Assembly (NCBI GenBank): GCA_036268875.1
Contig: DATATI010000050.1
Coordinates: 5,770-69,769, forward strand
Source of the DNA: Polyangia bacterium
GTDB taxonomy: Bacteria > Myxococcota_A > Polyangia > Fen-1088
Reading direction: 5' to 3'
DNA length: 64,000 nucleotides
How positions within the stretch are numbered: the first letter of the stretch is position 1; every line of letters begins with the position of its first letter. Shown piece after piece: positions 2,876 through 24,898 of the stretch. Position numbers and translations under genes: made by a program. The notes under the pieces were generated by a model. That model was not told the origin of the DNA. It did no database searches and was given only the letters and a program-made list of their open reading frames with translations.

Positions 2876-3113
2876 ATGTCAAAGATGCGATCGACGCTCA
2901 TGTTGCTGATCCTTGGTACGACCCTGGCCCTGCCTCACTGACTTCCCGCCGCCCATCTCCGTGCAACAGACGACCGCCGACGATCCCTGCCCGGACGCCG
3001 GCTCGGCATGCGGGAACACCTACCCGATCGTCTGGTGCAAGGCGGATGGCACGGCCACGATCGTGACGTGCGAAAAGGGTGCCTGGGTGATCAAAGCCAA
3101 GAAGTGCCCGTAA
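2876..3113 (+). pseudogene. Small Cys-rich lipoprotein, frameshifted at the lipobox (or sequencing indel)
   Basis: RBS GAGGAG, then ATG 2876 signal peptide MSKMRSTLMLLILGTTLA. The frame breaks at CTGGCCCTGC and the other frame continues CLTDFPPP...CPDAGSACGNTYPIVWCKADG...CEKGAWVIKAKKCP*. Confidence 0.55.
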
Positions 3114-3216
3114 CCAACATTGTCTCCGCGGGAGAGGTTCACCAACCCTTCCCCGCGGACCCAACGCCGCCCCACACGAAGATCGTCCATTCAAGCGCTC
3201 CCTCTCGTCACTGTTC

Positions 3217-3240
3217 ATTCTGGGCTCATGTGCCCAGAAT
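3217..3240. repeat. Perfect 9-6-9 palindrome ATTCTGGGC-TCATGT-GCCCAGAAT
   Basis: Seen directly, 25 bp beyond the last gene of the RM island. The 12-mer TGTGCCCAGAAT also occurs at 2407-2418. Confidence 0.8.
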
Positions 3241-3265
3241 CTGACGTTCGCTGGCGTCTTTGGCG

Positions 3266-3982
3266 TCAGCACCGCCAGTCTTCGTGGCGGACGGGCAATC
3301 GGTTCAGCTGCCGTCGGTGGTGCTGCCAGTGCGGCATCGCGCGGTCCATCATCGCGACGAAGCGCGCGTTGTGGGTTGGCTCGATCAGGTGGGCCAACTC
3401 GTGGACCACGATGTACTCCAGGCATTCAGGGGGCTTCTTGGCGAGATCGCTGTTCAGGCTGATGTTGCCCGCGGCGGCGTTGCAGCTGCCCCATTTGGTG
3501 CGCATGCGCCTAGCGAGAAAGCGCGCCGCCTTGACGCCCAGGCGAGACTCCCACTTGGCCAGCAAGGATGGCACCGCCTGCTTGACCTGCTGGCGATACC
3601 AGTCGTCCATCAGAACCTGCCGCTTGGCGATCGCCGTGTCCGGGCGAACACGAAGGACGAGACGGCTGTGTTTGACCGCGATCGCGGGGGACTGCGGGCG
3701 CTCCTCGACGGTCAGCAGGTAACGCTTGCCCCACAGATAGTGGCTTTCGCCGCTGACGTAGGCGCGCGCGGTCTCGCGCTCCTGGGCCTGAAACGCTTTT
3801 CGCTGTTGCTTGATCCAGCCAAGCTTGGAGATCGCCAGCACGCGGATCGCCGCCTCGCTCATGCGCGTGGGCGCGGCGATGCGCACGCCCCCCGCGGGCG
3901 GGTAGACGCCCAGGTGGACGTTCTTGATGTTCTTGCGCACGACGCGCACGGCGATGTCGCCGAGTTGCAGGTGCGAGACCAT
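3266..3982 (-). CDS. M48 family metallopeptidase (YgjP/DUF45-like), RM-associated
   Basis: KWGSC and VVHELAHL (HExxH) motifs; TGATG overlap with hsdR. Confidence 0.92.
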   Translation of the reverse strand: MVSHLQLGDIAVRVVRKNIKNVHLGVYPPAGGVRIAAPTRMSEAAIRVLAISKLGWIKQQRKAFQAQERETARAYVSGESHYLWGKRYLLTVEERPQSPAIAVKHSRLVLRVRPDTAIAKRQVLMDDWYRQQVKQAVPSLLAKWESRLGVKAARFLARRMRTKWGSCNAAAGNISLNSDLAKKPPECLEYIVVHELAHLIEPTHNARFVAMMDRAMPHWQHHRRQLNRLPVRHEDWRC

Positions 3983-6900
3983 CAGTACTCCGACTGCGCC
4001 TTGATGATGGGGAACAAGCGTTCGACCTCGGTCTCGTCCTGAAGGACGTTGTAGAGGGCGCGTTTGATCTCCTGTTCCCGCGCCTGCACGCCGCGCCAGC
4101 CGTCGGGGCGGGCGTGCTTGACGGCCTCGTCGATCTCCAGGGCCAGCTTCAGAGCCAGGCTATCGGGCGCCGTCGAGCCGGACCACGTGGCCGACTCGTC
4201 GTCGGTTATCCTTGGCCTGCCAGCCCTGCCCTTCAGGTTGTTGTACAGCGCGCGCCGGCCCGGCGTATCCAGCGCCGCGGGTGTGTCGGCGGCCTGACCG
4301 GCGTCGACTCTCTTCACCAGGTCGGCGATGCGCATCAGATATTCCTCGTACTCGATGGCGCGGGCCTTCCGGGTGGCGATGATCTCGTCCAGCAGCGCGG
4401 ACATCTTGTCGTAGAAGGCCGGATCGTTCAGGTGCTCTTTCAAGATCATCTTGCGGACGTTGTTCTCGATGGTCTCGGCGACGGCGTTCTTGTTGCCCTT
4501 GAGGTCGCCAAGGCGCGTGTCGATGGCGTTGGCCATCCCGGTCTTCACGATCAGCTCCAGCAGGCCCATGCCGTCGAACGGAGACACCTTGCGCGGCTCG
4601 TCGGCCCGGATGTACGTGTCGATGAGGTGCCGCATGTCGGCCTCGTACGCCTTCAGATCCAGGCTTTCACCGCTGGCCTTGCGGACGATCTCTCGGATGT
4701 TCAGGTATCGCTGCAGGTCGCCCTTGATGCGGGCGACGTCGCCGACGCTGTACCCGGCCGGCTCCAGCTCGTCGGCCAGGTTGGCGTAGGCGCGCACCAG
4801 CGCCACGGTCGCCTTGTACAGCGCGGCTCGCTGCGGCTCGCGTTCTTGAAGGTCCGACGGGATCTCGGTGTTGCCGCAGAAGTAATGGATGTGCTCCAGC
4901 TCGCCGCGCGGCGGCTCGACGGGCTCGCACAACAGGGCCAGCGCTTCGATGGCGCCGTCCAGGCGCTCGCGCCCCTTGGCCAGGCGATCCTGCATCAAAA
5001 CCTCGGGCGCGGCGCCGCCGGCGGAGTGATCCAGCTCGGAGGTGTAGACCTGCAGGGCGCCCGTGCCCTTGTCGTTGACCAGGTTCTTGAACAGATCCTT
5101 GTAGTCGACGATGTAGCCGAACTCTTTGTCGTCGCCGTCCAGGCGGTTGGTGCGGCAGATGGCCTGGAACAGGCCATGGTCGCGCATCGACTTGTCGATG
5201 TACAGGTAGGTGCAGTGGGGCGCGTCGAACCCGGTCAGCAGCTTGTCGACCACCACCAGCAGCTTCATGTTCGCCGGCTCTCTGGTGAAAAGCTGCTTGG
5301 CGTTTTCTTCGTACGTCTCGGTCCGCGACAGGGCGGGCCTCGGCTCGATGTCTTTCAGCAGCTCGGTATAGACGCTGAAGACGGTCTGCTTGTCGGACTC
5401 GGTGTTGGCGCCCACCTCTTCCTTGGTCATGTCCTGCGCCTGCGGGTCGTATGACGTGACGACGGCGCAGCGGCCGCGAAACGGGGTCTTCTCAAACAGG
5501 GTGAAGTACTTGCATGCCTCGTAAATGCTGGAGGCCACCAGGATGGCGTTGCCGCGCTCGCTGCTCAGGCGCGGCTTGACGCTGAAGTCGAAGACGATGT
5601 CGGCCACCACGCGCTCCATGCGCGCGCGCGAGCTGAGCACGTGCTGCATGGTGCCCCACTTCTTCTTCAGCTCGTCCTTTTGCCAGTCGTTCAGGCCGCG
5701 GGTCTTGGCTTCGAACCAGGCGTCGATCTTTTCCTTGGAACCCAGCACTTGATCGATGTCGCGCGCCTCGTAGACAAGGTCCAGGACCACCTCGTCCTGC
5801 ACGGCCTCGCTGAATTTGTAGGTGTGAATGTAGCCGCCGAAGAGCTCAAGGCTGGTTTTTTTGTCCTCCTTCAACAGCGGCGTGCCGGTGAAGCCGATGA
5901 AGGTGGCGTTCGGCATCATGGCCTTCATCAGCTGGTGCAGCTTGCCGCTCTGGGTGCGGTGGCATTCGTCGACGAAGACGAACACGTCGCCCACCGTCGG
6001 GCTGGGCCTGGCCTGCAGGTCCTTGATGAAGGCGTTGACGTCCTTGACGTCGCGGCGCCCGAACTTGTGTACCAGCGAGCACAGCAGGCGCGGCGCTGGT
6101 TTCGACAGCTGGGTCATCAGGTCGCGCCCGCTGCTGGTGCGGTAGATGGTCTCGCCCACGTCGCCAAAGACGCGCTCGATCTGCTTGTCCAGCTCGTCGC
6201 GGTCCGTGAGGATGACCACCCGGGCGTGCGGGTTGTTCTCCAGAATCCAGCGGGCCAGCAGCACCATGACGATGCTCTTGCCGCTGCCCTGGGTGTGCCA
6301 GATGATGCCGCCCTGGCGCTGGCGGATTCTCGCCTGCGCGGCCTTGATGCCGAAGTACTGGTGCACGCGCGGCAGCTTCTTGACGCCGCCGTCGAACAGG
6401 ACGAAGTCGTGCACCAGCTCCAGCAGGCGATCCTTGGCGCACAGCTTGGTCAGGTACTTGTCCAGCTTGAAGCCGCGATCGTCGTGCTCGTCTTCCTTCC
6501 ACTTCAGGAAGTACTTCTCCGCCGTGCCGATGGCGCCGTACTGCAGGCCCTGAGAATCACTGCCGGCCAGCACCAGGGCCACGGTGGCGAAGAAGGCGGC
6601 GTTGAATTCAGGTTGCTGGTTGGAGAGCAGCTGCCGGATGCCGTCGCCGATGCTGGTGCGGCTGTTCTTCAGTTCCAGCACGCCCAGGGCGATGCCGTTG
6701 ACGTACAGGACCAGATCGGGCCGGCGCTCGCGGGGGCCGTTCAGGGTCACCTCCTCAGCGACGGCGAAGTCGTTCTTCTCAGGATGGCGCCAGTCGATCA
6801 GGTGGACGGTGTCGGTGGCCTTGCCGGCGGCGGTCTTCACCGCCACGCCATAGCGGAGCAGCTCATGCACCGCCTTGTTGTTGCCGTACAGGGCGCGGCT

Positions 6901-7116
6901 GTGGTTGTTCGCCTCGGTGCGCAGCTTGTGCAGGGCGCCGCTGATCTGCGCCGGCCCGTTGCCCTGGGCGGCCAGCCAGGCGGTCAGCGTGGCCTCCTCG
7001 ATGTTGCTGTTGCCGGCACGCTCGCTCCAGTCGCCCAGGTACCGATAGCCAAGCTCGTCGCAGAACAGATCGATGACGCGGCTCTGGGTGGCGCGTTCCG
7101 GAAGCCCGACGGTCAT
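3982..7116 (-). CDS. hsdR: Type I restriction endonuclease subunit R
   Basis: HSDR_N nuclease motif (RRPDLVLYVNGIALGVLELK), Walker A HTQGSGKS, DECHR, LLTGFDAP, QAICRTNR. Confidence 0.97.
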   Translation of the reverse strand: MTVGLPERATQSRVIDLFCDELGYRYLGDWSERAGNSNIEEATLTAWLAAQGNGPAQISGALHKLRTEANNHSRALYGNNKAVHELLRYGVAVKTAAGKATDTVHLIDWRHPEKNDFAVAEEVTLNGPRERRPDLVLYVNGIALGVLELKNSRTSIGDGIRQLLSNQQPEFNAAFFATVALVLAGSDSQGLQYGAIGTAEKYFLKWKEDEHDDRGFKLDKYLTKLCAKDRLLELVHDFVLFDGGVKKLPRVHQYFGIKAAQARIRQRQGGIIWHTQGSGKSIVMVLLARWILENNPHARVVILTDRDELDKQIERVFGDVGETIYRTSSGRDLMTQLSKPAPRLLCSLVHKFGRRDVKDVNAFIKDLQARPSPTVGDVFVFVDECHRTQSGKLHQLMKAMMPNATFIGFTGTPLLKEDKKTSLELFGGYIHTYKFSEAVQDEVVLDLVYEARDIDQVLGSKEKIDAWFEAKTRGLNDWQKDELKKKWGTMQHVLSSRARMERVVADIVFDFSVKPRLSSERGNAILVASSIYEACKYFTLFEKTPFRGRCAVVTSYDPQAQDMTKEEVGANTESDKQTVFSVYTELLKDIEPRPALSRTETYEENAKQLFTREPANMKLLVVVDKLLTGFDAPHCTYLYIDKSMRDHGLFQAICRTNRLDGDDKEFGYIVDYKDLFKNLVNDKGTGALQVYTSELDHSAGGAAPEVLMQDRLAKGRERLDGAIEALALLCEPVEPPRGELEHIHYFCGNTEIPSDLQEREPQRAALYKATVALVRAYANLADELEPAGYSVGDVARIKGDLQRYLNIREIVRKASGESLDLKAYEADMRHLIDTYIRADEPRKVSPFDGMGLLELIVKTGMANAIDTRLGDLKGNKNAVAETIENNVRKMILKEHLNDPAFYDKMSALLDEIIATRKARAIEYEEYLMRIADLVKRVDAGQAADTPAALDTPGRRALYNNLKGRAGRPRITDDESATWSGSTAPDSLALKLALEIDEAVKHARPDGWRGVQAREQEIKRALYNVLQDETEVERLFPIIKAQSEY

Positions 7117-7343
7117 CTTGTGATCCTCATCGAGTTCAGCAGAAGGACGCGATGCACTGGGTCGGCGACTGGGTCGGCGACTGGGTCGGTCACCGGCGTC
7201 TCTACCGGCGTTTCTACCGGCGTTTTGACTTGGACGGTGACTTGGCCGGTGACTTGGCCGGTCACCGACGCTTCTACCGGCGTTTCTGCCGGGAGGGCGA
7301 TGATCCGGTTCTGGGTGGCGCGCTCGGGAAGGCCGACGGTCAT
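7113..7343 (-). pseudogene. 76-codon chimeric ORF: diverged second hsdR start plus 12-bp-repeat linker remnant
   Basis: MTVGLPERATQNRIIAL versus hsdR MTVGLPERATQSRVIDL (42/51 nt identical), then ETPVEASVTGQVTGQV...TPVETPVETPVTDPVADPVADPVHRVLLL. ATGA overlaps at both ends. Confidence 0.75.
7158..7286. repeat. Mixed 12-bp tandem repeats encoding PVAD/TPVE/TGQV
   Basis: CTGGGTCGGCGA, ACCGGCGTTTCT and GTGACTTGGCCG units, each repeated 2-3 times. Confidence 0.8.
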
Positions 7344-8749
7344 TTCAACATCTCCCAACGGCCGGCCTTGCGTGGCCCGACGAAGCGCAGGCGCCCGTCC
7401 TTGACCAACTTGGCGACGGCGCGCTCCACGGCTCGGGTTGACTTGCCGATGGCCAGCGCCAGGTCGGCCATGGTCATGGCGGGCTGGCTGGCCAGCAAGT
7501 CCAGAACACGCGCGGGGGTTTTTACCGGCGTTTTTACCGGCGTTTCTACCGGCGTTTCTACCGGCGTTTCTTGGGTAGTTTCTGGGGTAGTCCGCCCGGT
7601 TTCTGGGGTAGTGCCCTTCGCGCCTCCCATGGCCGCAGCCAGGTGCCCGGGATTGGCGTGAAAGATCACCATCAGACCGGACATGCTGAGGTCGTAGACG
7701 GGCGGCTCGATCCCGTGCTCCCGGCACTCGCGCCTGATCTTCTCGATGCCACGCCCCCACGATTCAATGAACCCGGCCCGAAACAAGGCGTTGGCCACCA
7801 GAGGATTGAAGGGCTTTGACGGATGCTTCCCCATCAGCTTCTTCAGGGTCCAGTTGTGCGGCAACTCGCCGGGGTTCCAGAACATGATCTTGTCCTCGTA
7901 GACACTGATCTGGATCGGAATGCCGCTGCTGTAGTCTTTGTGAATGACGGCGTTCAGCAGCGCCTCGCGGAGACCGCCGTAGGGAAACAGGTAGCTCTCG
8001 ATTCGCTGCAGTCCCTCGTAGCTGATGTAGGCCTTCAAGTACTTGCGATCCAGAACCTTCAGCGTTTCCTCGACCTGCTCGAACAGGTTGCCGTGGATTT
8101 CGTCCTGGTGGCGAAGATCGTCGTCGGTCACGAAGAAACCAATCTTGATCCAAGCACCGCTCACACGGCTCTCGGGGCGGTCCGAGAACAGCAAGGCGGC
8201 TGCCCGCTTCAGATATGGTCCCTCCAACAATTCCAGGTTGTCGAGGACGGCCCGACGCCCGTCCCGGAGAACGCCTTCCGGCATGCGACCGCTCCGCGTC
8301 GCGCTCTGCGCGAACAGGCGAAGGGCATCCGCGCTGACATTCTTGAGATGCAGAGTGGGGTCAGGAACCGCGTCCCAGTGCCGGCCTTGCTTACGCAGCA
8401 GGAACTGGGCGAGGGCGGCGCCCTTCAGGGCCTGGGTGGTGCTGCCGCTGCGGACGTAGTACTCGCCGCGGTAGCTGATGGGGTTGGGGTAGGGCTCGAC
8501 GACAATCTCCAGGTACTCGCGCGTGGATTGTTCGCGCAGGTTCACGCCGACCATGATGCCCAGCAGGTCGCGGATCTTGTTAGGCAGATGCTCCAGCAGC
8601 TTATCGGCGTTCGGCAGCCCGACGACTTTCCCTTTGTTGTCGCGCCCGACGACCAGCGTGCCACCGTCCGCGTTGGCGAACCCGCAGATCGTCTTGCAGA
8701 ACTCGTCCCGCCAGGACTCCTTCCATTCGACCCGCTGGCTCTCTTTCAT
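7340..8749 (-). CDS. Schlafen/AlbA_2 domain + HATPase_c_4 (RecG-C-like) + C-terminal wHTH protein
   Basis: N-terminal ESQRVEWKESW...ICGFANADGGTLVVG (AlbA_2), YYVRSGST, LREALLNAVIHKDY and NPG...NPLVANALFRAGFIESWGRGI (HATPase_c_4), repeat linker, HTH ending GPRKAGRWE. Confidence 0.9.
   Translation of the reverse strand: MKESQRVEWKESWRDEFCKTICGFANADGGTLVVGRDNKGKVVGLPNADKLLEHLPNKIRDLLGIMVGVNLREQSTREYLEIVVEPYPNPISYRGEYYVRSGSTTQALKGAALAQFLLRKQGRHWDAVPDPTLHLKNVSADALRLFAQSATRSGRMPEGVLRDGRRAVLDNLELLEGPYLKRAAALLFSDRPESRVSGAWIKIGFFVTDDDLRHQDEIHGNLFEQVEETLKVLDRKYLKAYISYEGLQRIESYLFPYGGLREALLNAVIHKDYSSGIPIQISVYEDKIMFWNPGELPHNWTLKKLMGKHPSKPFNPLVANALFRAGFIESWGRGIEKIRRECREHGIEPPVYDLSMSGLMVIFHANPGHLAAAMGGAKGTTPETGRTTPETTQETPVETPVETPVKTPVKTPARVLDLLASQPAMTMADLALAIGKSTRAVERAVAKLVKDGRLRFVGPRKAGRWEMLK
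7517..7612. repeat. 12-bp tandem repeats in the AlbA_2 gene linker (TPVE/TPVK/TPET)
   Basis: TTTTTACCGGCG/TTTCTACCGGCG repeated 4-5 times; same unit as in the 76-codon ORF. Confidence 0.8.
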
Positions 8750-10038
8750 ACGAGCCGAATCCTCCCGGTGAGCAGCTCCTGCATCATCCCCGCCTTCACC
8801 TGCCGCGCCTTGGCGAGCCTGGCTGCGACGGCGGCGAGCTCGGCGTCCATGTCGGAGAGGACGGCGGCGATGGCGGTTTGTTCGTCGATACTCGGGAGGG
8901 AAATCGGAATGTTACCGAGGACGCTCCTGGCAATTCTGTTTCTGGTCGACCCTCCACAGCGCTCATTGACAAATTGCAGCCAAGAATTCGTGCTGAAGAC
9001 CTGTACCAAGTAGTTTCTATTTGCGAGTTCGGGAAGCGGCCTAAATATTGTGACATCAACGGCGGTAATGACGCGATCGGGGCCTAGATCAGGCAGGATA
9101 CAAGCGCGGCCCGCTGGCTCGGCTAACCTGCAGATCAGAATGTCCCCGGCGTAGATATCCTTGCATCGGAGAATTTGGGCAGATGCTTCCGAGATAAACT
9201 TGCGCTCGGCTTTTTCGACAAATGACCCGACGCCTATGTTCCCCGTCTGAACGAGGCGAACGCCTTGTTCGGTGAGGAATTTGGCCTCGATCCAGTCGCC
9301 GTCATCAAAAAGGACCTTAGATCCTCCCGCGAAACTCAGAAGGGAACTGCTTTGCCATGCGCTGCTGAACCCCGGCAGGCGCTTCTGGCCGGTGAGGAGT
9401 TCCTGCATGGCGCCTTGTTTGAGGTGGCGTTTCTTGGCGAGGAGTTGCTCCAGGGATTCGATGAGGGCATCCGCATCGCTCAACGCCTCGGCGATGGCTT
9501 CCTGCTCGGCTGCCGTGCTTGGAAGTGAAACAAAGCTGTCATAGATTGATGCATTCGATGTATGGCGAACTGTCGAACCGGTGGCAGTCGCTTTCATTCG
9601 GGCCGAGTACCCGTCCGAAAGAAAATGCCAATACAAGAATCGAGGCGTCAGACGATCGTTGATCGGAACAATCTTGCCGATCCGCTGATTGTGAAGGATG
9701 GGTTCGTCAACGTTCACAAAAGCTGGCTTGCCAAGGAGATCGCACTCTGGCGTTAAATCCGTCATGACGACCAGCAGGTCGCCGCGATGAAAAAGCAGCG
9801 AAGAGGAGTAAGTGCCAGCATATCGTTTCGTGTTCCGTTCGTTGAAGTAGAGTCCGCCGTCTAGCTTGAAGTTTCCGGGCGTCAGCAGGATGGGACCCAT
9901 GTCTGAAAAATGATCGCTGCTGAACGCAAAGCCGCTCTTGATAGCGATGAGTTCCTTGAGCGCTCTGATATCCCAATCCTCCGGAATCACCCCCACCTCC
10001 GTCTGCTTGTACCCGCGCTTCACCGCCCCGTCACTCAT
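8746..10038 (-). CDS. hsdS: Type I RM specificity subunit S
   Basis: GYKQTEVGVIPEDW start, two TRDs, conserved EQEAIAEALSDAD...KQGAMQELLTG and EQTAIAAVLSDMD...GMMQELLTGRIRL. ATG 10038 overlaps the DUF1016 stop. Confidence 0.96.
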   Translation of the reverse strand: MSDGAVKRGYKQTEVGVIPEDWDIRALKELIAIKSGFAFSSDHFSDMGPILLTPGNFKLDGGLYFNERNTKRYAGTYSSSLLFHRGDLLVVMTDLTPECDLLGKPAFVNVDEPILHNQRIGKIVPINDRLTPRFLYWHFLSDGYSARMKATATGSTVRHTSNASIYDSFVSLPSTAAEQEAIAEALSDADALIESLEQLLAKKRHLKQGAMQELLTGQKRLPGFSSAWQSSSLLSFAGGSKVLFDDGDWIEAKFLTEQGVRLVQTGNIGVGSFVEKAERKFISEASAQILRCKDIYAGDILICRLAEPAGRACILPDLGPDRVITAVDVTIFRPLPELANRNYLVQVFSTNSWLQFVNERCGGSTRNRIARSVLGNIPISLPSIDEQTAIAAVLSDMDAELAAVAARLAKARQVKAGMMQELLTGRIRLV

Positions 10039-11076
10039 CGTCGCCGCCATCCAGATCGCCGCTCAGCGCCGACTCCAGCTCTTCAATGCTCGGCAGGTTG
10101 GTGTCCAGCGGTTCGGGCAGTGCGCGCACCAGCTGGTACTCGGCGACGCCGATGGGGTTGGCGATGCCGGACAGGGCGTATTCGGCGACCAGCTTGTTCT
10201 TGGTCTTGCACAGCAACAGGCCGATGGTGGGCTTGTCGTCGGGGGCCTTCACCTGGGCGTCGACGGCGGCGAGGTAGAAGTTCAGCTGGCCGGCGTGCTC
10301 GGGCCTGAAGGCGCCGGCTTTCAGCTCGACCACCACGTGGCACTTGAGGCGCGTGTGATAAAAAAGCAGGTCGACGAAGAACTCGTCGCCTTGCACTTCA
10401 AGACGGAATTGCCGGCCGAGAAAAGCGAAGCCGGCGCCCAGTTCCAACAAGAAGCGGGTGATGTGGCGAATGAGAGCGTTCTCGATGTCGCGCTCGTGCG
10501 CCTCGTCGCCCAGGCCCAGGAAATCGAGTGGTACGGGTCCTTCAATATCTCGGCGGCCAGCGCAGCGTGGGGCGCGACCAGGCGCTGGCCGAAGTTGGTG
10601 ATGGCGGCGCCCTGGCGGGCATGCAGGCGGTTCTTGAGGTGCGCCTCCAGCGTGGCGCGGGGCCAGGCGTTGTCCACGGCCTGGGCGGCGTACCATTCGC
10701 GGGCAGCGGGATCGGAGACCTTGGTCAACAGGGTGACGATGTGGAACCACGGCAATTGGTCAGCAGACTGCTGACCAATTCGCATCTCTGGACACAGCTG
10801 GGCGAAATACCTCATGTATTTCAGGTTCGAGCTGGACAGCCCCTTCATGTCGGGGAAGGCTTCGCGCAGGTCCACGGACAGGCGATCGATGACCTTGGCG
10901 CCCCAGCCCTGGCGCTCTTGCCGCTGCAGGATCTCGGTGCCGATGCGGTGGTACAGGGCCACCTGCTCCTGATTGGCCGACAGCACGGCGCGCTGCCGGG
11001 CGCCGCGGATCTGCGCCTTGAGATCCGCCAGCCAGTCGGCGTAGTCCGCCGGGTGCGCCAGCAGGTCGCCGCTCAC
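10031..11076 (-). pseudogene. DUF1016/YhcG PD-(D/E)XK nuclease, split by an apparent 1-bp deletion near 10528
   Basis: GTG 11076 frame gives DUF1016_N (GWGAKVIDRLSVDL, LPWFHI, KDPY). A second frame continues DFLGL...ELGAGFAFLGRQ...VDLLFYH...VVELK...GQLNFY. One added T in TACCAC-TC-GATTTC restores KDPYHFDFLG. Confidence 0.85.
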
Positions 11077-13469
11077 GGCGCGAACCCCATCCTTTCCAGA
11101 TGTCGGTTCACCTTGGCCTCCAGCTCGGCCACGCGGGTGACCAGCGCCGGCAGCGCCGCCTCGTAGCGCTCGGCCAGCTCTTTCACGCGCGCGGTCAGCG
11201 CCTGGCTGACCCGCTCCATCTCGCCGTGAATGTCGCCCTCCAGGGTGCCGAGCCACTTGTCGTCGACGACCAGCGCCTTCACGTCGGCTTCGCCCAGCTG
11301 CGGATACTGGGCATACGCCTTGGCGTCCAGCGCGACCTCGGCGTCCTTGAGGCGCGCCTTCAGTGCCGTCTCGTCATTGTTCAGCTTCGCCCATTCGGTC
11401 AGGGCGGCGCGCTCGTCCTTGGCGTCGGCGTCGCCGGCGATCTCTTTCAGGCGCGCGGCGACGCTGGCCTTGTTCACCTTCTCCAGCTCGACGAAGGCGC
11501 CCTCGTCGCCGCCGTGTTCTTCTTCCAGCTCGCCCAGGCGCGCCGAGACCGTCTCCAGCGCGGCGGCTATCTCGGCGACGCCGGCCTGCTGGTTGGCGAA
11601 AAATCGTCCGACCACCAGCGCCTTGGGCACCAGATCGCAGGCCCAGCCCTTGTCCTTCTCTTTGCCCTTTTTATCCTTCTCGATGATCCGGAACGTCTCG
11701 GCTTTCCAGCCGTCGGCGGCGATCAGGTAGCAGTCGTCCTGCATGGTCGCCGCCCAGTAATCCATCAGGTGCTGGTAGACGTCGTAGGGATCGATCAGCG
11801 GCCGGCCGGCGTAATGCGCCAGCAAGCCTTCGGCCAGATCGGCGATCACCTGCTTGGGATGACAGGCGGACTTCAGCGCCTTCAGGGTCCTGGCGGTCTT
11901 CTGCCGCCAGGACGCGAAGTGTTCGTTCATGCCGGCGATGAACGACGCGAACTCCGGGTGGTCATAGATGGTCGATTTGATGGCCGCCTTGTCGACGGCC
12001 AGCGTGAGGTAGCCGGCGCGCGCCTTCTTGAACAGGCTATTACGCAGGCCCGGGCAGACGTCCCAGTACCGTTGCAGGGCATCGACGTCGGCGACCGGGA
12101 TGCCGCCCTGCAGGTGGCCGGCGATGTCCTGGCGATCCTCCGGCGTCTGGCTGTCGATGTACCGGGCCAGGTTCAGGTTGAAGTCGTTCTTCTCGATCTC
12201 GTCGATGCCGACCATCCGCGAGTAGCGGGGCAGTGGCGTTTGCTTGTTGAAGGCGTCGACGATCTTGTGAATGTCCTGGGCGCGCAGGCGGTTCTTGGGC
12301 CCGTCCTTCATGAAGCCCTGGCTGGCGTCGATCATGAAGATCCCCTTGCGGGTGTGGGCCGCTTCCTTGTCCACCACCACGATGCAGGCCGGGATACCCG
12401 TGCCGTAAAACAGATTGGCCGGCAGCCCGATGATCCCCTTGATGTACCCCTTGCGCACCAGCGCGCGGCGGATGTCGCCCTCGGCGTTGCCCCGGAACAG
12501 CACCCCGTGCGGCAAAATGCAGGCGCCCTTGCCGGTGCTCTTCAGCGAGCGAACGATGTGCAGCAGGTACGCGTAGTCGCCCTGCTTGCCGGGCGGGACG
12601 CCGAACGACTTGAAGCGATCGTGCGGATCGTTCAGGGGATCAAGGCCGGTGCCCCAGCGCTTGTCGGAGAACGGCGGGTTGGCGACGACGTAGTCGAACG
12701 TCTTCAGCGCGGGGCCGTCCTTGAATTTCGGATCGACCAGCGTGTTCCCCTGGACCACCAGCGCCGAGGGGTTGTCGTGCAGGATCATGTTCATGCGCGC
12801 CAGCGCGCTGGTGGCGGCGTCCTTCTCCTGGCCGTACAGCGTGACCGTGGTGCCGGCTTCGTCGCCGACCTTCAGCAGCAACGACCCGGACCCGCACGTC
12901 GGGTCGTACACCGTCGTGGCCTTGGTGATCTTGGCCGTCTTGATGCCCAGGATCTGCGCCATGATCCGGCTGACCTCGGCGGGCGTGTAGAACTGGCCCT
13001 TGCTCTTGCCACTCTCGGTGGCGAAGTGGCGCATCAGGTATTCGTAAGCGTCGCCCAGGATGTCGTCGCCGTCGGCGCGGTTCTTCGAAAAATCCAGGGC
13101 CGGGTTCTGGAAGATGGCGATCAGGTTGGTGAGGCGTTCCACCCGTTCCTTGCCGTCGCCCAGCTTCGTCGCGTCGTTGAAGTCGGGAAAGTCCGACAGC
13201 TTGTTGGCGTTGGCCAGGGGCGCCAGGATCTTCTTGTTGATGACGTCGCCGATGTCGGGCGTCCCCTTGCACGCCACCATGTCCGCAAAGCTGGCGCCGC
13301 GCGGGATGGTGATGGGCGCGTACGGCTGGCCGGCGTACTTGTCGCTGATGTACTTGATGAACAGCAGCACCAGGACATAGTCCTTGTACTGACTGGCATC
13401 CATCCCACCGCGCAGCTCGTCGCAGCTGGACCACAGGGATGAGTAAAGCTCGGACTTTTTCAGAGCCAT
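11073..13469 (-). CDS. hsdM: Type I RM methyltransferase subunit M (long form)
   Basis: MALKKSELYSSLWSSCDELRGGMDASQYKDYVL, GQFYTP, YDPTCGSGSLL (motif I), VANPPF (motif IV), PHGVLFRG. Confidence 0.97.
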   Translation of the reverse strand: MALKKSELYSSLWSSCDELRGGMDASQYKDYVLVLLFIKYISDKYAGQPYAPITIPRGASFADMVACKGTPDIGDVINKKILAPLANANKLSDFPDFNDATKLGDGKERVERLTNLIAIFQNPALDFSKNRADGDDILGDAYEYLMRHFATESGKSKGQFYTPAEVSRIMAQILGIKTAKITKATTVYDPTCGSGSLLLKVGDEAGTTVTLYGQEKDAATSALARMNMILHDNPSALVVQGNTLVDPKFKDGPALKTFDYVVANPPFSDKRWGTGLDPLNDPHDRFKSFGVPPGKQGDYAYLLHIVRSLKSTGKGACILPHGVLFRGNAEGDIRRALVRKGYIKGIIGLPANLFYGTGIPACIVVVDKEAAHTRKGIFMIDASQGFMKDGPKNRLRAQDIHKIVDAFNKQTPLPRYSRMVGIDEIEKNDFNLNLARYIDSQTPEDRQDIAGHLQGGIPVADVDALQRYWDVCPGLRNSLFKKARAGYLTLAVDKAAIKSTIYDHPEFASFIAGMNEHFASWRQKTARTLKALKSACHPKQVIADLAEGLLAHYAGRPLIDPYDVYQHLMDYWAATMQDDCYLIAADGWKAETFRIIEKDKKGKEKDKGWACDLVPKALVVGRFFANQQAGVAEIAAALETVSARLGELEEEHGGDEGAFVELEKVNKASVAARLKEIAGDADAKDERAALTEWAKLNNDETALKARLKDAEVALDAKAYAQYPQLGEADVKALVVDDKWLGTLEGDIHGEMERVSQALTARVKELAERYEAALPALVTRVAELEAKVNRHLERMGFAP

Positions 13470-13650
13470 GGGGCGGTGGCCGAGTCTATAGCGGCTTGAA
13501 CGTGGCTGCGCAGTTCCACGCCGATCAGCGTGATGATGAGGCGCCGCCCTTCGACCGTGATCGAGACCTTCTTGGCGTCCTCGCTCCCAAGCAAGCCGGT
13601 CGCGTCATGCACCTTGTCGCGGAACAGGAAACCGGCTCTACTTCCGCGCC

Positions 13651-14118
13651 GTGGCTAGTTTCGACGAGGGCGCCCTGCTGGAAAAATTGCGGCGAATCGA
13701 AGCGCTGTACGCAGGCGCGACGACACCGGGCGAGCGGGATGCGGCGGCGAACGCCAGACGCTGGGTGCAGGACCGCCTCCGCCAGCTCGAGCGCGAGGAG
13801 CCGGCCGTCGAGTACAAGTTCACGATGGGTGACGCCTGGTCACGCCGCCTCTTTCTCGCCCTGGCGCGCCGCTATGACCTCAAGCCCTATCGGTACCCGC
13901 GGCAGCGTCACACGACCGTGATGATCCGCGTGCCGCGCCGGTTCGTGGACGAAACCTTGTGGCCCGAATTCAAGGAGCTCAGCGGTGCGCTGCGCGCCAC
14001 GCTGGAGGAGGCGACGGAGCGCGCGGTGTCGCGCATCCACGACGACCGGCGTGAGGCCGAGGTCCGCCCCGAACCCGCGCAGCTACCTCCCCGTGTCGAC
14101 GGCGGGGACCAGGGATAG
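13651..14118 (+). CDS. Conserved hypothetical protein with DUF2786-like N-terminus
   Basis: LEKLRRIEALYAGATTPGERDAAANA start and a globular-looking body; divergent from hsdM. Confidence 0.7.
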   Translation: MASFDEGALLEKLRRIEALYAGATTPGERDAAANARRWVQDRLRQLEREEPAVEYKFTMGDAWSRRLFLALARRYDLKPYRYPRQRHTTVMIRVPRRFVDETLWPEFKELSGALRATLEEATERAVSRIHDDRREAEVRPEPAQLPPRVDGGDQG

Positions 14119-14148
14119 AAGCCGACGCAGTGGGATCACCGACGCGCC

Positions 14149-14178
14149 AGCCGCGGAGCGCACTCACGATCCGCGGCT
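14149..14178. terminator. Hairpin between convergent genes (possible bidirectional terminator)
   Basis: AGCCGCGGA-N12-TCCGCGGCT; no U-tract. Confidence 0.35.
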
Positions 14179-14194
14179 GACCGACTCAATCGCC

Positions 14195-17100
14195 CTACAA
14201 ACAGGCGTGGGCCAGCGTGATTCCGTATTTGTCGGCCAGATAGCAGTCCACGTATTCGCGATCGCTGTCCGACAGGGCGCTGCTGTAAATCAAGATCTCG
14301 GCGATGTCGCCGTCCAGAAACTCGTTGACCACGGTGGTGCCGATGACGACGTCATTGGGCACGACGTTGTTGTCGTGAGCGGCGTCCTGGGCCTGTTGCT
14401 GGCCGTCGACCAGAATGCGGCGGTCGCCATCGGTGTAGCGGGTCATGCCGATGAACGCCTGGCCGGGGATGAAGACCGCGGCCGGCGTATTGAGATCGTT
14501 GCCCCACCAATAGTCGACCAGGCCGTAGGCACCTTCGCCACCGTCCAGCGTGCGGAAGCAGTTGGCGGTGTTGCCGCCGGGCACGCCGCCGCACACCAAC
14601 CCGTTGCGATTGGTGTTGTTCACGGCGGCGACCACGACGACGGTGTACGGGTCATTGCCCGACGGCAACGCGGCGGCGGCCATCGACAGGGCGGCCTGGC
14701 CGTCAAAGTGCAGGACCGGCATCCCGTTGACGGCATTGCTGACAAAGCGAGGCGCCTCACTGCCGTTCAGCGGCGCGGCGTCGTGGGCGTTGGACGTCTG
14801 ATCGAGCCAAGCCGTTATGCCATCGCCGTCGACGGCGCCGCTGACGGTGTCGGCCGACAACCAGGTGGTGAGGCCGGTGACCGTCTGCGGGTCATAAGCG
14901 CCCGCGACGCAGACAGTGCCGCGCGCGTGCATGCCGGTGGGGCAGTGGCACTGAACCGCGCCGAAGGTGCTGGATTGGCAGGTGGCCATGGCGTCGCAGC
15001 CGCCGTTGTCGACCAGGCAGGGATCGGTGCTGTAGGTGGCGAACTCGATCTTCTCGAAGCCCGTCAGATCGCCCGGGTACTGGTCGGTGCGGTCAGAGCG
15101 CTGGGTTTCCAGCTGCTCCAGAAAGTAATACTGGTACGCGCCCGGCGACGACAGCTGCAGCACTTCGGGCAGCCCGCGGGTGGGATTGGGCCACGAACGC
15201 TCCCAGAAGGACGACGCGTTCAGCGTCCCCAGAAGGTGCATGTCGGCGCGCGGAACGCCGCCCTCCGCCGGCACCGCGCCGCTGGCGTTTGATCCGTAAA
15301 CGTTGAAGGTCTTGATCCCGCGCATCCACTCTGAATTGCGGAAATTGCTAAAGTTAATCAGACGTAATTCATTGACTGTCACGGCATCGGCGAAGGTGGT
15401 CTCGAACCACTGGGTCAGGCGCGTGCTGGCGGACAGTAGCCCGCCGGCCGACGCGTAATCCTTGCTCCAATCGTGACTGAAGATGAATGAGTGATCGGGC
15501 GGCACGCCGCCGGGCGGATCGGTGATGGTGTTGGCGGCCAGCAGGTTGTTCTGACCGGCCTCGCTGCTGGCGGCGGCGCTGACCGGTTTCAGGTAGGTGC
15601 TGACCTTGCCGGCCGGGGCCAGGCTGACGTCGCAGCCGTCGGGGATGCTGTCTCCGTCGACGTCGGCGGCGCTGACCACGACCAGGTCCGGATAGTGGGT
15701 GGTGCAATAGTTGTCGACGATGTGCACGGTGTGCGTGGCGATGCCCAGGGAGGGCGTGTCCCCGGAGGTGGACGCGCCCAGCGTGACCACCAACGTGTCG
15801 CCCGGCTGCACCGACGGATCGATGGCGAAGGTCAGCGTCGTCCACGCGTAGTCGGGGCCGACGAACAGGTCGCCGTCGCTGTTGTTCATCTTCGCGGCGC
15901 CGCCCAGCGTGTAGGGCAAGGTGAAGGCGCTGCCGCCCCGGGTGTGCATCACGCTGATCTCCACGGTGCCGGCGTTCTTGTGCGTGTAGCTGTCGGCGCG
16001 CAGGAACCCGACCACGTTCGGCGCGGGGCTGGTGATGCACGATTGCCCGTTGCCCTCATAACTCTGGTTGCACAGACAGGCGTTGGTGTTCCCGGACAGC
16101 CACTGGCAGTCGGCGTTGGTGTCGCAGCCACCGTGGTTGATGGTGCAGACGCTGATTTCGCAGGTCGTGCCGTCGCCGACGTAGTCGCCGGTGCAGGCGC
16201 AGCTGCTCGTGCCGGGTCCGGTCATGGTGCACGCCGCGTTCGCGTCGCAGCCGCCGTTTGCAGTCAAGCAGTTGTTCACCGGCGTGCAGGTGACGCCGTC
16301 GCCATCATAGTGCGCGTTGCAGGCGCAGCTGCTCGTGCCGGGTCCGGTCATGGTGCAGGCCGCGTTCGCGTCGCAGCCGCCGTTTGCGGTCAAGCAGCTG
16401 TTCACCGGCGTGCAGGTGAGGCCGTCGCCATCAAAGTGCGCGTGGCAAGCGCAGTGGTTGGTGCCGGGTCCGGTCATGGTGCAGGCCGCGTTCGCGTCGC
16501 AGCCGCCGTTTGCGGTCAAGCAGCTGTTCACCGGCGTGCAGGTGAGGCCGTCGCCGTCATAGTGCGCATGGCAGGCGCAGCTGTTGGTTCCGGGTCCGGT
16601 CATGGTGCAGGCGGCGTTCGCGTCGCAGCCGCCGTTTGCAGTCAAGCAGCTGTTCACCGGCGTGCAGGTGAGGCCGTCGCCGCTGTAACCAGTCTGGCAG
16701 GTGCAGCTGTTCGTCCCCGGACCGGTCATGGCGCAGGTGGCCTGGCTGTCGCAGTAGCCATTCCTGATGAGGCAGTTGTTCACCGCCGCGCAGGTCTTCC
16801 CGTTGCCGCTGTAGCCGGTGCCGCAGACGCAGGTGCTGGTGCCGGGGCCGATCATCGTGCAGTCGGCGTGGACGTCGCAGGTGCCGTGGTTGGCTGCGCA
16901 GTTGTCGATCGGATAACAGGTCTCGCCGTCGCCGTGATAGCCCGGCTGGCAGGTGCACAGGTTGGTCCCCGGACCCGTCATCGTGCAGGTCGCCTGGGCG
17001 TCGCAGCCGCCGCTGTTGGTCTGGCAATTGTTGATGGGCGTGCAGGTATTGCCATCGCCTTCGTACCCGGTCTTGCAGCGGCAAGTCGCCACGCCCTGTT

Positions 17101-17452
17101 GGGGCGAGCACACGGCGTCCATCGCGCAGCCACCGCCGTCGATCGCGCAGGGGTTGAAGGCGTCGGCCACGGCGTCGGCCATGGCGTCGGTCTGGACCTC
17201 TGCGTCCGCGTCTGCGTCGGCGCTGTCGACCGCTGCTTCGGGTTTGACTTCGACCTTCACCTCGGCGGGCGCATCGACGTCCGGGCGCAGGTCCGCCCGT
17301 AGGTCCAGCGGCGCGGGGGCGTCACTGCTGTCCGTGGTGTCCGCTGCGTCGCTTCGCGCGTCGCCTGCGCCTGTCTGGCCATTGTCACCGCAGGCGGAGA
17401 AGCTCGCGATCAGGGGCGCCAGCAGCGCCAGGCGAAGCGGGACCAGTTTCAT
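14195..17452 (-). CDS. Large surface lipoprotein with 10 EGF-like domains, Calx-beta-like, discoidin-like and C-terminal LamG/ConA-like domains
   Basis: Start placed at MKLVPLRLALLAPLIASFSAC (lipobox). Nine tandem 6-Cys EGF units plus one later unit; DVDGDSIPDGCD; C-terminal WLSAD...WLDQ...NGMPVLHFDG...GDIAEILIYSSALS. Confidence 0.88.
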   Translation of the reverse strand: MKLVPLRLALLAPLIASFSACGDNGQTGAGDARSDAADTTDSSDAPAPLDLRADLRPDVDAPAEVKVEVKPEAAVDSADADADAEVQTDAMADAVADAFNPCAIDGGGCAMDAVCSPQQGVATCRCKTGYEGDGNTCTPINNCQTNSGGCDAQATCTMTGPGTNLCTCQPGYHGDGETCYPIDNCAANHGTCDVHADCTMIGPGTSTCVCGTGYSGNGKTCAAVNNCLIRNGYCDSQATCAMTGPGTNSCTCQTGYSGDGLTCTPVNSCLTANGGCDANAACTMTGPGTNSCACHAHYDGDGLTCTPVNSCLTANGGCDANAACTMTGPGTNHCACHAHFDGDGLTCTPVNSCLTANGGCDANAACTMTGPGTSSCACNAHYDGDGVTCTPVNNCLTANGGCDANAACTMTGPGTSSCACTGDYVGDGTTCEISVCTINHGGCDTNADCQWLSGNTNACLCNQSYEGNGQSCITSPAPNVVGFLRADSYTHKNAGTVEISVMHTRGGSAFTLPYTLGGAAKMNNSDGDLFVGPDYAWTTLTFAIDPSVQPGDTLVVTLGASTSGDTPSLGIATHTVHIVDNYCTTHYPDLVVVSAADVDGDSIPDGCDVSLAPAGKVSTYLKPVSAAASSEAGQNNLLAANTITDPPGGVPPDHSFIFSHDWSKDYASAGGLLSASTRLTQWFETTFADAVTVNELRLINFSNFRNSEWMRGIKTFNVYGSNASGAVPAEGGVPRADMHLLGTLNASSFWERSWPNPTRGLPEVLQLSSPGAYQYYFLEQLETQRSDRTDQYPGDLTGFEKIEFATYSTDPCLVDNGGCDAMATCQSSTFGAVQCHCPTGMHARGTVCVAGAYDPQTVTGLTTWLSADTVSGAVDGDGITAWLDQTSNAHDAAPLNGSEAPRFVSNAVNGMPVLHFDGQAALSMAAAALPSGNDPYTVVVVAAVNNTNRNGLVCGGVPGGNTANCFRTLDGGEGAYGLVDYWWGNDLNTPAAVFIPGQAFIGMTRYTDGDRRILVDGQQQAQDAAHDNNVVPNDVVIGTTVVNEFLDGDIAEILIYSSALSDSDREYVDCYLADKYGITLAHACL
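16160..16663. repeat. Four near-identical 126-bp tandem repeats (EGF units 5-8)
   Basis: Units begin at 16160, 16286, 16412 and 16538, each encoding TPVN(S/N)CLTANGGCDANAACTMTGPGT...C. Confidence 0.92.
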
Positions 17453-17678
17453 GGGGACCTCGAAGTGGGGAGAGGGGAAGGTGGGCGTGAATGGCCCGAG
17501 GAAGGACTCGGGTCTGGCACGAATCGGAAGACCACCCAAAAAACCTGAGCAGAGGAAGCGTGCGGACTGCGCACGCCCGAGCAACCGGTCGCGACCGGGC
17601 CACTCTCGCTCTCTCCGGAACTTCGGCTGCTTCGCCGCCACGTACGCGAGCGCGCGCGGAGCGAGGACCGCCTGACGG

Positions 17679-23611: not shown

Positions 23612-24898
23612 CTAGCGCGCCGATCGATGTTCCAGCAGGCGTTCGACCTGTTCCAGCATCGATCGGTGCTCGTGCGGGGTGCCGCCCAGGCGTTGCGACT
23701 GCTCGGCGTAGCGTCGCGCCGCCGGGGCGTCGCCCAGCATCGCTGACAGATGGGCCAGGACCGCCAGCGGAACGTGCGACGCGCGCAGCCGCTCGTCGGT
23801 GCGCAGCCGTTCGACGCGCGCCATGGCGCCCCGCGGATCGCCCGCATAGCCGATGGCCACGGCGCGATGAAGTTCCACGATCGGCGAGCCGGTGACGGCC
23901 ACCAGCTCGTCGTACAGCGCCACGATCGCCGGCCAGTCGGTGGCGGCGAACGTCGGGGCGATGCAGTGCTGCCGGGCGATGCGCGCTTCGATGAGAAAGC
24001 GGCCCGACGCGCCCGACGGCGCCGTCGTCGCCAGCGTGATCAGCCGCCCGGCCAGGGCGATGGTCTCCGCGTCCCAGCGCGAGCGATCTTGCCGGTCGAT
24101 GGGCACGTTGCGGCCGTCGGCGTCGATGCGCGCGCGCGATCGCGCCAGGTGCAGTTGCATCAGCGCCAGTAAGCCCAGCGTGTCGCGGTTGACGACGCGC
24201 GGCTCGTCGCAGAGCAGGCGCGCCAGGTGGACGGCTTCATGGCAAAGCGAAAGGTTCATGGGCGCCGCATCGTCCGTTGGCTCGGAGCTGTGAAAGCCTT
24301 CGTTGAAAAGCAGGTAAATCACCGTGTGCACGGTGTCCATCACTTGCGGCAAGCGATCCGCCGACGGGAACTCGAACTTGTGTCCCTCGAGGCGCTCGCG
24401 GGTGCGCAGCAGGCGTTTTTTGACCGTCGCCTCCGGCAGATACAGCGCCCGGCAGATGGCCGGGATGCTGAACCCGCAGAGCGATCGCAAAATCAGCGGG
24501 ATGCGGTTCTCGGGCGGCAGCTCGGCGCCGGTGCACATGAAGATCATGCGCAGCTGGTGATCCTTGATGCGCGTCTCGTCGAACTCCTGCTCGACGGTGT
24601 ATGACCGCGTCCACCCGCTCTCCAGGTGATCGGCGAGATCCGCGGAAAAACGCCGTTGGGTGCGCTGGCCGCGGATGGCGTCGATGGCCTGGTTCTTCGC
24701 GGCCGAGATGATCCACCCCGCGGGGTTGGCCGGCACGCCGTCCGCTTGCCAGGCGACCAACGCCTTGCGAAAGGCGTCCTGCAGCACGTCTTCCGCCAGC
24801 GCCAGGTTGTGCGTGCCGAACAGACGTACCAGCACGGCCAGGATGCGCGACGCCTGCTGGCTGTACACTTTCTCGACGGTGGCGTCGCTCTCGGTCAT
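23612..24898 (-). CDS. ECF sigma factor with C-terminal TPR extension (ECF42-like, DUF6596)
   Basis: AEDVLQDAF, W...AKNQAID, DHQLRMIFMC, LRSLCGFS...KKRLLR, IYLLFNEGF, LHLARSRAR, PLDRQDRSRWD-like, DWPAIVALYD; next to a YciI gene. Confidence 0.9.
   Translation of the reverse strand: MTESDATVEKVYSQQASRILAVLVRLFGTHNLALAEDVLQDAFRKALVAWQADGVPANPAGWIISAAKNQAIDAIRGQRTQRRFSADLADHLESGWTRSYTVEQEFDETRIKDHQLRMIFMCTGAELPPENRIPLILRSLCGFSIPAICRALYLPEATVKKRLLRTRERLEGHKFEFPSADRLPQVMDTVHTVIYLLFNEGFHSSEPTDDAAPMNLSLCHEAVHLARLLCDEPRVVNRDTLGLLALMQLHLARSRARIDADGRNVPIDRQDRSRWDAETIALAGRLITLATTAPSGASGRFLIEARIARQHCIAPTFAATDWPAIVALYDELVAVTGSPIVELHRAVAIGYAGDPRGAMARVERLRTDERLRASHVPLAVLAHLSAMLGDAPAARRYAEQSQRLGGTPHEHRSMLEQVERLLEHRSAR

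Follow-up and report, generated by a model that had tools for sequence, protein, structure and literature searches.

A Schlafen–ATPase–wHTH gene in the prrC slot of a type I restriction–modification operon: a predicted tRNase on an apparently swappable cassette

Does a nuclease encoded inside a restriction–modification (RM) operon sense a phage directly, or does it sense the failure of restriction? In the type IC system EcoprrI, the anticodon nuclease gene prrC lies between hsdS and hsdR; it invariably accompanies an RM locus, and EcoprrI keeps it silent (PMC3458546, PMC3874165, PMC12707154). In a 64,000-nt stretch of the Polyangia bacterium contig DATATI010000050.1 (hereafter the window, meaning the whole stretch analysed), the same slot of a type I RM operon holds a gene for a Schlafen (AlbA_2) nuclease domain, a GHKL ATPase and a winged helix-turn-helix (wHTH), as a preliminary description of the sequence had rightly pointed out. 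The RM family concerned, which ranges from Myxococcota to the candidate phyla radiation (CPR), provides a compact five-gene cassette for asking this question. The gene encodes a Schlafen-domain protein with intact motifs, occupies a conserved position and evolves in a cassette-like manner; RNase activity, an ATP switch and a role in defence would be expected from its homologues. We favour, at a probability of roughly 0.5, the reading that the Schlafen protein would be a self-contained, co-expressed second-layer tRNase within the operon, with a trigger sensed by its own domains rather than release from the RM complex.

The preliminary description had given the gene order hsdM–DUF1016–hsdS–AlbA_2–(mini ORF)–hsdR–M48, with overlapping junctions at all boundaries. 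Open reading frame (ORF) listing, translation, and Pfam, PADLOC and NCBIfam scans confirm this order on the minus strand (13469..3266), from 5' to 3':

11073..13469, minus strand: hsdM, 798 aa (Pfam N6_Mtase 3e-99, HsdM_N; TIGR00497; PADLOC MTase_I, 1239 bits)
10031..11078, minus strand: DUF1016/YhcG, PADLOC candidate PDC-S02, PD-(D/E)xK (DUF1016_N 9e-39 and YhcG_C 1e-59, in different frames)
8746..10050, minus strand: hsdS, 434 aa (Methylase_S in 2 stretches, that is, two target-recognition domains; PADLOC Specificity_I)
7340..8749, minus strand: AlbA_2 (Schlafen)–GHKL ATPase–wHTH gene, 469 aa (SLFN_AlbA_2 1e-15, HATPase_c_4 7e-21, HTH_24 4e-5)
7113..7343, minus strand: mini ORF of 76 codons, 76 aa, without a Pfam family
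3982..7116, minus strand: hsdR, 1044 aa (HSDR_N, SWI2_SNF2, T1R_D3-like; TIGR00348)
3266..3982, minus strand: YgjP/SprT-like M48 zinc peptidase, 238 aa (PF01863 2.5e-60; HELAH motif)

Every junction string quoted earlier is found in the sequence: GTGA between hsdM and DUF1016; ATGAGTGA at hsdS, which holds if the second ATG is the start (an ATG 12 nt upstream is also open); then ATGA three times and finally TGATG. HsdM, HsdS and HsdR lie in one operon, and their translations keep the catalytic motifs, NPPF in HsdM, which bears a long C-terminal coiled-coil extension, and PD-(D/E)xK (D..ELK) and DECH in HsdR, whose nearest solved relative is the type IC HsdR of EcoR124I (2e-36). Because the RM genes retain these motifs, the type I RM operon is apparently functional.

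The Schlafen protein is organized into four parts:

8390..8749, minus strand: Schlafen (AlbA_2) nuclease domain, aa 1–120 (PF04326, 58.5 bits against a cut-off of 25.3, aa 3–108)
7634..8389, minus strand: bridge subdomain and GHKL (HATPase_c_4) ATPase, aa 121–372 (PF13749, 74.5 bits)
7523..7633, minus strand: disordered linker, aa 373–409, with 12-nt (tetrapeptide) tandem repeats TTPE/ETPV/KTPV
7340..7522, minus strand: MarR-like wHTH, aa 410–469 plus stop codon (HTH_24, 23.6 bits)

The acidic E-x4-E-W-K motif ascribed earlier to the AlbA_2 domain is indeed present, reading M-K-E3-S-Q-R-V-E8-W-K10; the general form E-x4-(E/D)-x-K has been defined for prokaryotic Schlafens (pSlfns) (PMC13056530 and bioRxiv 10.64898/2026.05.29.728809). 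The nuclease domain thus carries E3-x4-E8-x-K10, together with W13, D15 and a Schlafen box, C-G-F-A-N, at aa 22–26, and the GHKL part carries E262-x3-N266, H270, D272 and G332-R-G334. The homologues recovered number more than 7,500 (at least). Across a conservation set of 80 of them with 48–71% identity, E8, K10, W13, D15, E262, N266, H270, G332 and G334 occur in 80/80, and E3 in 79/80. Mean pairwise identity is 70% in the nuclease, 55–58% in the bridge and GHKL regions, 40% in the wHTH and 23% in the linker, which makes the wHTH the most variable folded domain. A conserved nuclease paired with a variable wHTH constitutes an effector/sensor pattern, as reported for pSlfn5 (PMC13056530).

Structure prediction points the same way. 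An AlphaFold2 (AF2) model built from 56 sequences reached a pLDDT of 83 and fell below 50 at aa 376–409, corresponding to the disordered linker. In a Foldseek search against the PDB, the best match over the whole chain was 3LMM (E 5e-24; 17% identity), DIP2311 of Corynebacterium diphtheriae, a structural-genomics entry without known function; 3LMM was also the sole significant match in a sequence search of solved structures (E 1e-4), 8a22 being not significant at E 0.14. The comparison with SLFN structures suggested by the preliminary description returned human SLFN14 (9uie), SLFN12 (7lre), SLFN11 (7zel) and SLFN5-N (7cux), as well as the SAMD9 tRNase domain (9o0d), all at Foldseek probabilities of 0.93–1.0, with low TM-scores since a single domain aligns. 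The ATPase part matched PDK/BCKDK kinases and 3LMM, and the C-terminal part MarR/ArsR wHTHs. Judged from motifs and model, the gene product is a genuine nuclease of the Schlafen type whose catalytic and ATPase motifs are intact, and its cutting activity is predicted.

By its domain content, the gene belongs to the commonest prokaryotic Schlafen architecture, found in tens of thousands of proteins and described under several names: Schlatpase-wHTH, pSlfn HisKinase-HTH (PMC13056530) and 'Cluster 7' (PMC13462974). All share PF04326, PF13749 and a wHTH, along with the Ex4ExK and E-x3-N motifs; at the SAFAN-like box of Schlatpases, the window's protein reads CGFAN. Kuzmenko et al. 2026 defined SLFN+GHKL as the 'Schlatpase' supradomain (60,692 proteins, >90% with an HTH), and reported that the Schlatpase module of RzAgo undergoes ATP-driven tetramerisation and then cleaves tRNA, with E314/N318, the equivalents of E262/N266 in the E-x3-N motif, binding Mg-ATP (bioRxiv 10.64898/2026.05.29.728809). 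RzAgo senses through its fused Argonaute, whereas the window's protein has the small wHTH on its repeat tether as the only candidate sensor. Taboada et al. 2026 classified 5,930 pSlfns, of which HisKinase-HTH fusions make up 19.2%, and found two other architectures to be phage-triggered tRNases (PMC13056530). RorSlfn5 (PMC13056530) and Cash (PMC13462974) are both triggered tRNases, and Schlafen tRNases are now seen as an immune effector common to bacteria and humans. Back-up abortive infection by tRNA cleavage, as proposed earlier for this locus, would therefore be a reasonable function, other prokaryotic Schlafens being phage-triggered tRNases (PMC13056530, PMC13462974, bioRxiv 10.64898/2026.05.29.728809).

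Association with DNA-targeting defence has likewise been described. Exchange of Schlatpases with type I RM has been noted and fusions to HsdS published (bioRxiv 10.64898/2026.05.29.728809); the Cash paper calls Schlafen-ATPase-DNA-binding proteins 'tightly associated' with RM, BREX and type I CRISPR and documents methyltransferase fusions (PMC13462974); and a BREX survey terms Schlafen-HisK-wHTH a 'backup suicidal effector' (PMC12839542). The BREX proteins, Schlafen-minimal histidine kinase-wHTH effectors, have the same architecture and would likewise form a second-layer RNase within a methylation-based DNA-targeting defence operon; they differ in their host, BREX rather than type I RM, and in that the position here is fixed directly upstream of hsdR. 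Papers of 2025–2026 have already described the gene type, its association with RM and BREX, and the notion of a 'backup effector'. The locus is a clean natural system for the question of an RM guard, yet unsurprising to specialists in 2026.

The genomic context was compared across 80 related loci, one genome per species, by tblastn with the window proteins; most of these loci are contigs of metagenome-assembled genomes (MAGs). An hsdR of the window's family starts downstream of the Schlafen gene (SLFN) in 46 of the 73 loci with enough flank, in 42 of them within 150 nt, and 47 of 75 have the C-terminus of hsdS upstream, about 22 of these overlapping it by the same ATGA. Because the hsdS–SLFN–hsdR–M48 order recurs in 46 of the 73 informative loci, the arrangement is not chance. 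The hosts comprise Polyangia, Rhodocyclaceae, Binatia, Verrucomicrobiota, Nitrospira, Holophagales, Planctomycetota, Chlorobiaceae, Zetaproteobacteria, Treponema, Dehalococcoidia, Bacteroidota, Paceibacterota and Ignavibacteriota, with Myxococcota, Proteobacteria, Acidobacteriota, Chloroflexota, Nitrospirota and CPR among the larger groups represented; an ANME-2 archaeon also carries SLFN, with hsdS upstream. The RM family itself, made up of long HsdM, HsdS, HsdR and an SprT/M48 peptidase, is widespread, and cultured isolates that carry it include Arenicella sp. 4NH20-0111 and Solitalea longa HR-AV.

Other cargo within these operons always lies upstream of SLFN, which stays nearest to hsdR. 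It includes Fic(+HTH) (L010, L021), four GmrSD genes (L031, L032, L069), an AbiEii-like ATPase (L019), DUF4365 (L078), a PLD protein and a DUF4062-HATPase_c_4-Fic_C protein (both L059), a NucS/YhcG-like nuclease and KilA-N. The interior of the long-HsdM type I RM family is a hotspot for defence-type cargo, of which the Schlafen gene is, among the loci compared, by far the most constant. Accessory genes inside the operon are a trait shared with Rlo ('R-linked ORF') and with known type I RM cargo (Fic, GmrSD, Abi-like ATPases). A scan of viral contigs returned only 20 relatives, all of them distant; most stood alone and close to the end of a contig, and a phage-borne system was rejected on this basis.

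Linkage to the RM locus is not obligate. No hsdR of the family follows SLFN in 27 of the 73 loci, where the neighbours are mixed, with a few other RM genes and many housekeeping genes (glyS, metK, lgt, mnmA). The nearest annotated RM relatives, on S. meliloti ml21 pSymB (74% HsdR identity) and R. etli pRsp8C3a (68%), read hsdM–hsdS–hsdR–SprT with the slot empty, and in a P. juntendi plasmid the SLFN slot is filled by an unrelated gene of 323 aa. In a neighbour-joining (NJ) tree of the core domain with 79 taxa, RM-embedded and other copies interleave (17 parsimony changes; random mean 22.7, p=0.004), and a separate clade of RM-embedded Schlafens was rejected on account of this interleaving. In four loci (L012, L016, L025, L067), hsdR and/or hsdM/hsdS are truncated, and SLFN is full length with all motifs. 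Quantitative comparison of distance matrices gave r=0.88 for HsdR–HsdM (16 operons), r=0.64 for SLFN–HsdR and r=0.62 for SLFN–HsdM (Mantel, 16 operons), and r=0.36 (p=0.001) for the SLFN core against the HsdR N-terminus (37 operons); the wHTH showed no significant co-variation with the HsdR N-terminus in the same 37 operons (r=0.09). Given the tree interleaving, the intact SLFN in decayed operons, the weak co-variation and the empty slot in the nearest relatives, the Schlafen gene reads as a swappable accessory cassette, tolerated independently of the RM proteins. A functional connection to type I RM is conceivable all the same and is not to be dismissed, in view of recurrent linkage in several gene orders and the published fusions.

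G+C falls to 0.55–0.59 across hsdS and on into the 5' end of the Schlafen gene (window positions 8500–10000), from ~0.65 around, with hsdS as the operon minimum; such a dip would fit a recent exchange of either the specificity gene or a cassette.

If the Schlafen protein acts as a self-contained second layer, its N-terminal domain would be a Mg/Mn-dependent RNase that cuts tRNA, and the GHKL ATPase would provide an ATP-driven oligomerisation switch that brings the nuclease into its active geometry. Tethered by the repeats, the variable wHTH would serve as a sensing or regulatory module. Embedding in the operon through 4-nt overlaps would secure joint transfer and expression with the RM enzyme, and a phage that escapes restriction would then face translation shut-off. 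Several points weigh against this reading. The RNase activity and defence role of an RM-embedded Schlatpase-wHTH are extrapolated from homologues, and HisKinase-type pSlfns produced by themselves in E. coli failed to protect against the phage panel used (PMC13056530), which could mean that partners such as RM are needed. The linkage to type I RM is very tight and recurrent, extending to distant relatives near type I genes in the orders hsdR–hsdM–SLFN–hsdS or SLFN–hsdM–hsdS–hsdR (L093, L094, L087) and to HsdS and methyltransferase fusions, which suggests something beyond hitch-hiking. 'Free' copies might cooperate with an RM system located at another place in the genome, and the decayed operons could be assembly artefacts, most loci being MAG contigs.

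A rival reading is a PrrC-like guard, in which HsdM/S/R would hold the Schlafen protein latent and let it fire as a tRNase once an Ocr/ArdA/Stp-like protein disables or remodels the complex. The likeness to PrrC in EcoprrI covers the slot between hsdS and hsdR, the pairing of an NTPase with an RNase, the predicted tRNA target and the abortive-infection logic, in an operon whose HsdR is closest to that of type IC EcoR124I (PMC3874165, PMC12707154). Translational coupling through the ATGA overlap is kept in the ~22 loci mentioned, co-inheritance with HsdR/HsdM is significant if modest, the module is fused to HsdS (bioRxiv 10.64898/2026.05.29.728809) or to methyltransferases (PMC13462974) elsewhere, and the inactivity of HisKinase-type pSlfns when alone (PMC13056530) would also fit. 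We nevertheless consider such a guard unlikely. Whereas prrC is always RM-linked and RM-silenced (PMC3458546), the Schlafen family is often free-standing (27/73 close homologues without hsdR next, at least 17 context switches) and outlasts the loss of RM genes; SLFN remains intact beside truncated hsdR, hsdM or hsdS, so that its silencing is seemingly independent of the RM complex; the wHTH does not co-vary with HsdR; and the nearest annotated RM operons do without SLFN. Nor is there kinship to PrrC in sequence or fold, PrrC combining a HEPN anticodon nuclease with an ABC-type NTPase, whereas Pfam, NCBIfam and PADLOC give Schlafen, GHKL and HTH only. A convergent version, in which Schlafen-GHKL-wHTH would be a PrrC analogue that watches over the type I enzyme, or over DNA states arising from its action, and cuts tRNA upon blocked restriction, is likewise doubtful.

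Two further possibilities place the action on DNA. The Schlafen domain might act on single-stranded DNA or restriction products, or mark stalled HsdR complexes, and thereby boost restriction; some Schlafen N-domains bind or cleave DNA, SLFN5-N (7cux) being annotated as 'ssRNA cleaving and DNA binding', wHTH folds bind DNA, and SLFN tightly adjoins hsdR (42 loci, ≤150 nt). Yet all three characterised prokaryotic Schlafens cut tRNA (PMC13056530, PMC13462974, bioRxiv 10.64898/2026.05.29.728809) and free-standing homologues speak against dependence on HsdR, leaving this auxiliary role very unlikely. Least probable of all is a regulator or modulator whose wHTH would bind operon or target DNA and control how the hsd genes are expressed or how restriction is alleviated, the nuclease fold serving to bind. 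Conservation of the nuclease triad and ATPase residues across 80 homologues would be unexpected in a protein that merely binds DNA, many homologues occur away from RM loci, and a 469-aa three-domain protein absent from the nearest RM operons does not resemble an RM controller (C) protein; in those relatives, a small HTH/Phd-like gene upstream of hsdM is better placed as controller. Upstream of hsdM in the window, the search for an operator-like repeat turned up only a weak palindrome, which lies within the adjacent divergent ORF 13651..14118. What speaks for regulation is the C-terminal MarR-like wHTH, the historical annotations 'transcriptional regulator' and 'putative DNA binding domain-containing protein', and a position upstream of hsdR, whose expression needs delay upon entry into a new host. 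If the guard were true, the PrrC problem would have been solved a second time, independently in evolution; if the favoured autonomous tRNase were true, the small wHTH would represent a phage sensor of a new kind.

The tether of this wHTH is built from repeats. Tandem Repeats Finder (TRF) arrays with 12-nt units cover 7518–7571 and 7566–7591 in the linker. Among homologues the linker ranges from 8 to 66 aa, and many lineages use tetrapeptide tandem repeats (TPVE, TTQE, SEKT, RPES and others); repeat-built linkers also occur in L001, L014, L017, L026, L050, L072 and others, and the ETPV unit recurs in distant lineages. The tetrapeptide-repeat linker may be a length-variable tether or a recombination handle.

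Similar repeats make up much of the mini ORF that follows the Schlafen gene. Its first 46 nt (7298–7343) are an 87% copy of the hsdR start (7071–7116, the first 15 codons; direct repeat D3), and the remainder consists of four 12-nt arrays at 7156–7291, with units DPVA, ETPV, TGQV and ETPV/EASV like those of the SLFN linker, and a short tail, HRVLLLNSM, that resembles the wHTH start ARVLDLLASQ. tblastn gave no match to the mini ORF in the 80 related loci, and among 42 operons no other carries a near-identical copy of the start of hsdR. The idea of a real gene was rejected on three grounds, namely no family, no homologue in the 80 loci, and a make-up of repeats and an hsdR duplicate. The mini ORF looks like a recombination scar, left over from a second Schlafen gene or from the swap of a cassette.

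One related locus suggests how such a scar could have arisen. L009 carries SLFN, an hsdR' fragment (residues 2–87) and a second SLFN (2946–5754), followed by hsdR, with the fragment derived from a different hsdR lineage (49% versus 70% identity); this arrangement is likely to be the ancestral state of the scar. Two SLFN genes are found in tandem in L078 (8635–11401) and, in tandem or nearby, in L059 and L019. A weaker possibility is that the linker repeats and the conserved hsdR 5' end act as recombination handles for swapping sensor (wHTH) cassettes between operons, in which case the scar at 7113–7343 would be the fossil of a wHTH-cassette swap. In public soil-metagenome contigs, one from run X2 joins 7209 to 7578 in frame, which would give a Schlafen-GHKL protein with the scar's linker and without the wHTH, with 42 nt on one side and a depth of 2.4; as evidence this join was set aside, as it possibly stems from a strain with different linker repeats.

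The two accessory activities that the preliminary description had counted as extra defence layers turned out differently. The YgjP-like peptidase is better read as a core gene of the RM family than as an added layer. The M48 gene comes after hsdR in all related loci whose contig extends to it (tblastn), its distance matrix correlates with that of HsdR at r=0.87 (15 operons), and its counterpart beside hsdR on plasmids is annotated 'SprT family zinc-dependent metalloprotease'. These comparisons make M48 a core, co-evolving hsdR partner and the conserved last gene of the long-HsdM RM family.

The supposed YhcG nuclease layer was a misreading as well, the gene being frameshifted here. DUF1016_N and YhcG_C lie in different frames rather than in one intact ORF: the N-terminal part is in frame from GTG 11078, and the C-terminal part in a frame ending at 10031, separated by a 1-nt deletion near 10526/10527 in which one T is missing behind the codons KDPYH (CAC[T]TCGATTTC), as placed by comparing translations with the intact homologue of L021 (…ILKDPYHFDFLGL…). 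A 1696-nt soil-metagenome contig of run X1, identical to the window, carries the deletion, while slightly diverged contigs of runs X2/X3 have an extra base behind 10526 that restores the DUF1016 frame, at read depths of ~4–6. Because X1 shares the deletion and the related X2/X3 contigs keep the base, it looks like a genuine, recent, strain-level inactivation, and the DUF1016 gene is probably dead in this strain. With a Polyangia MAG as the best-matching locus and soil metagenomes as the source of the runs, the window probably stems from a soil-dwelling myxobacterium. DUF1016 is present in three operons only (the window, L009 and L021); the L009 copy is likewise split between two frames, with the shift elsewhere, and an assembly error is possible there, L009 being a MAG contig.

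At the operon's end, 26 nt past the M48 stop codon, lies a palindrome:

3217–3240: palindrome I2, 12+12 nt, ATTCTGGGCTCA/TGTGCCCAGAAT, 92% complementary

It is a possible operon end or terminator, although without a T-run. A scan of 2900–14300 for sigma-70 promoters and terminators gave nothing above shuffles and is uninformative for an organism of 65% G+C. No tRNA genes were found in the 64-kb window, and the flanking ORFs (156–2150, 2408–2941, 13651–14118, 13612..13460 and others) carry no Pfam families.

Upstream, a 50-codon ORF on the minus strand (13460–13612) overlaps the hsdM start by 10 nt, and its tail, KVSITVEGRRLIITLIGVEL, is faintly similar to Phd/YefM antitoxins. The rhizobial relatives have a 62–63-aa HTH or Phd-like gene at the matching position. 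As a controller of the operon this ORF was dropped, since the 80 related loci show no conserved counterpart ahead of hsdM. The adjoining divergent ORF of 155 aa (13651–14118, plus strand) has clear coding character (MASFDEGALLEKLRRIEALYAG…). Farther out on the minus strand, the window encodes a 1148-aa protein with nine EGF_3 repeats (14195–17641) and an extracytoplasmic function (ECF)-type sigma factor with DUF6596 (23612–24898).

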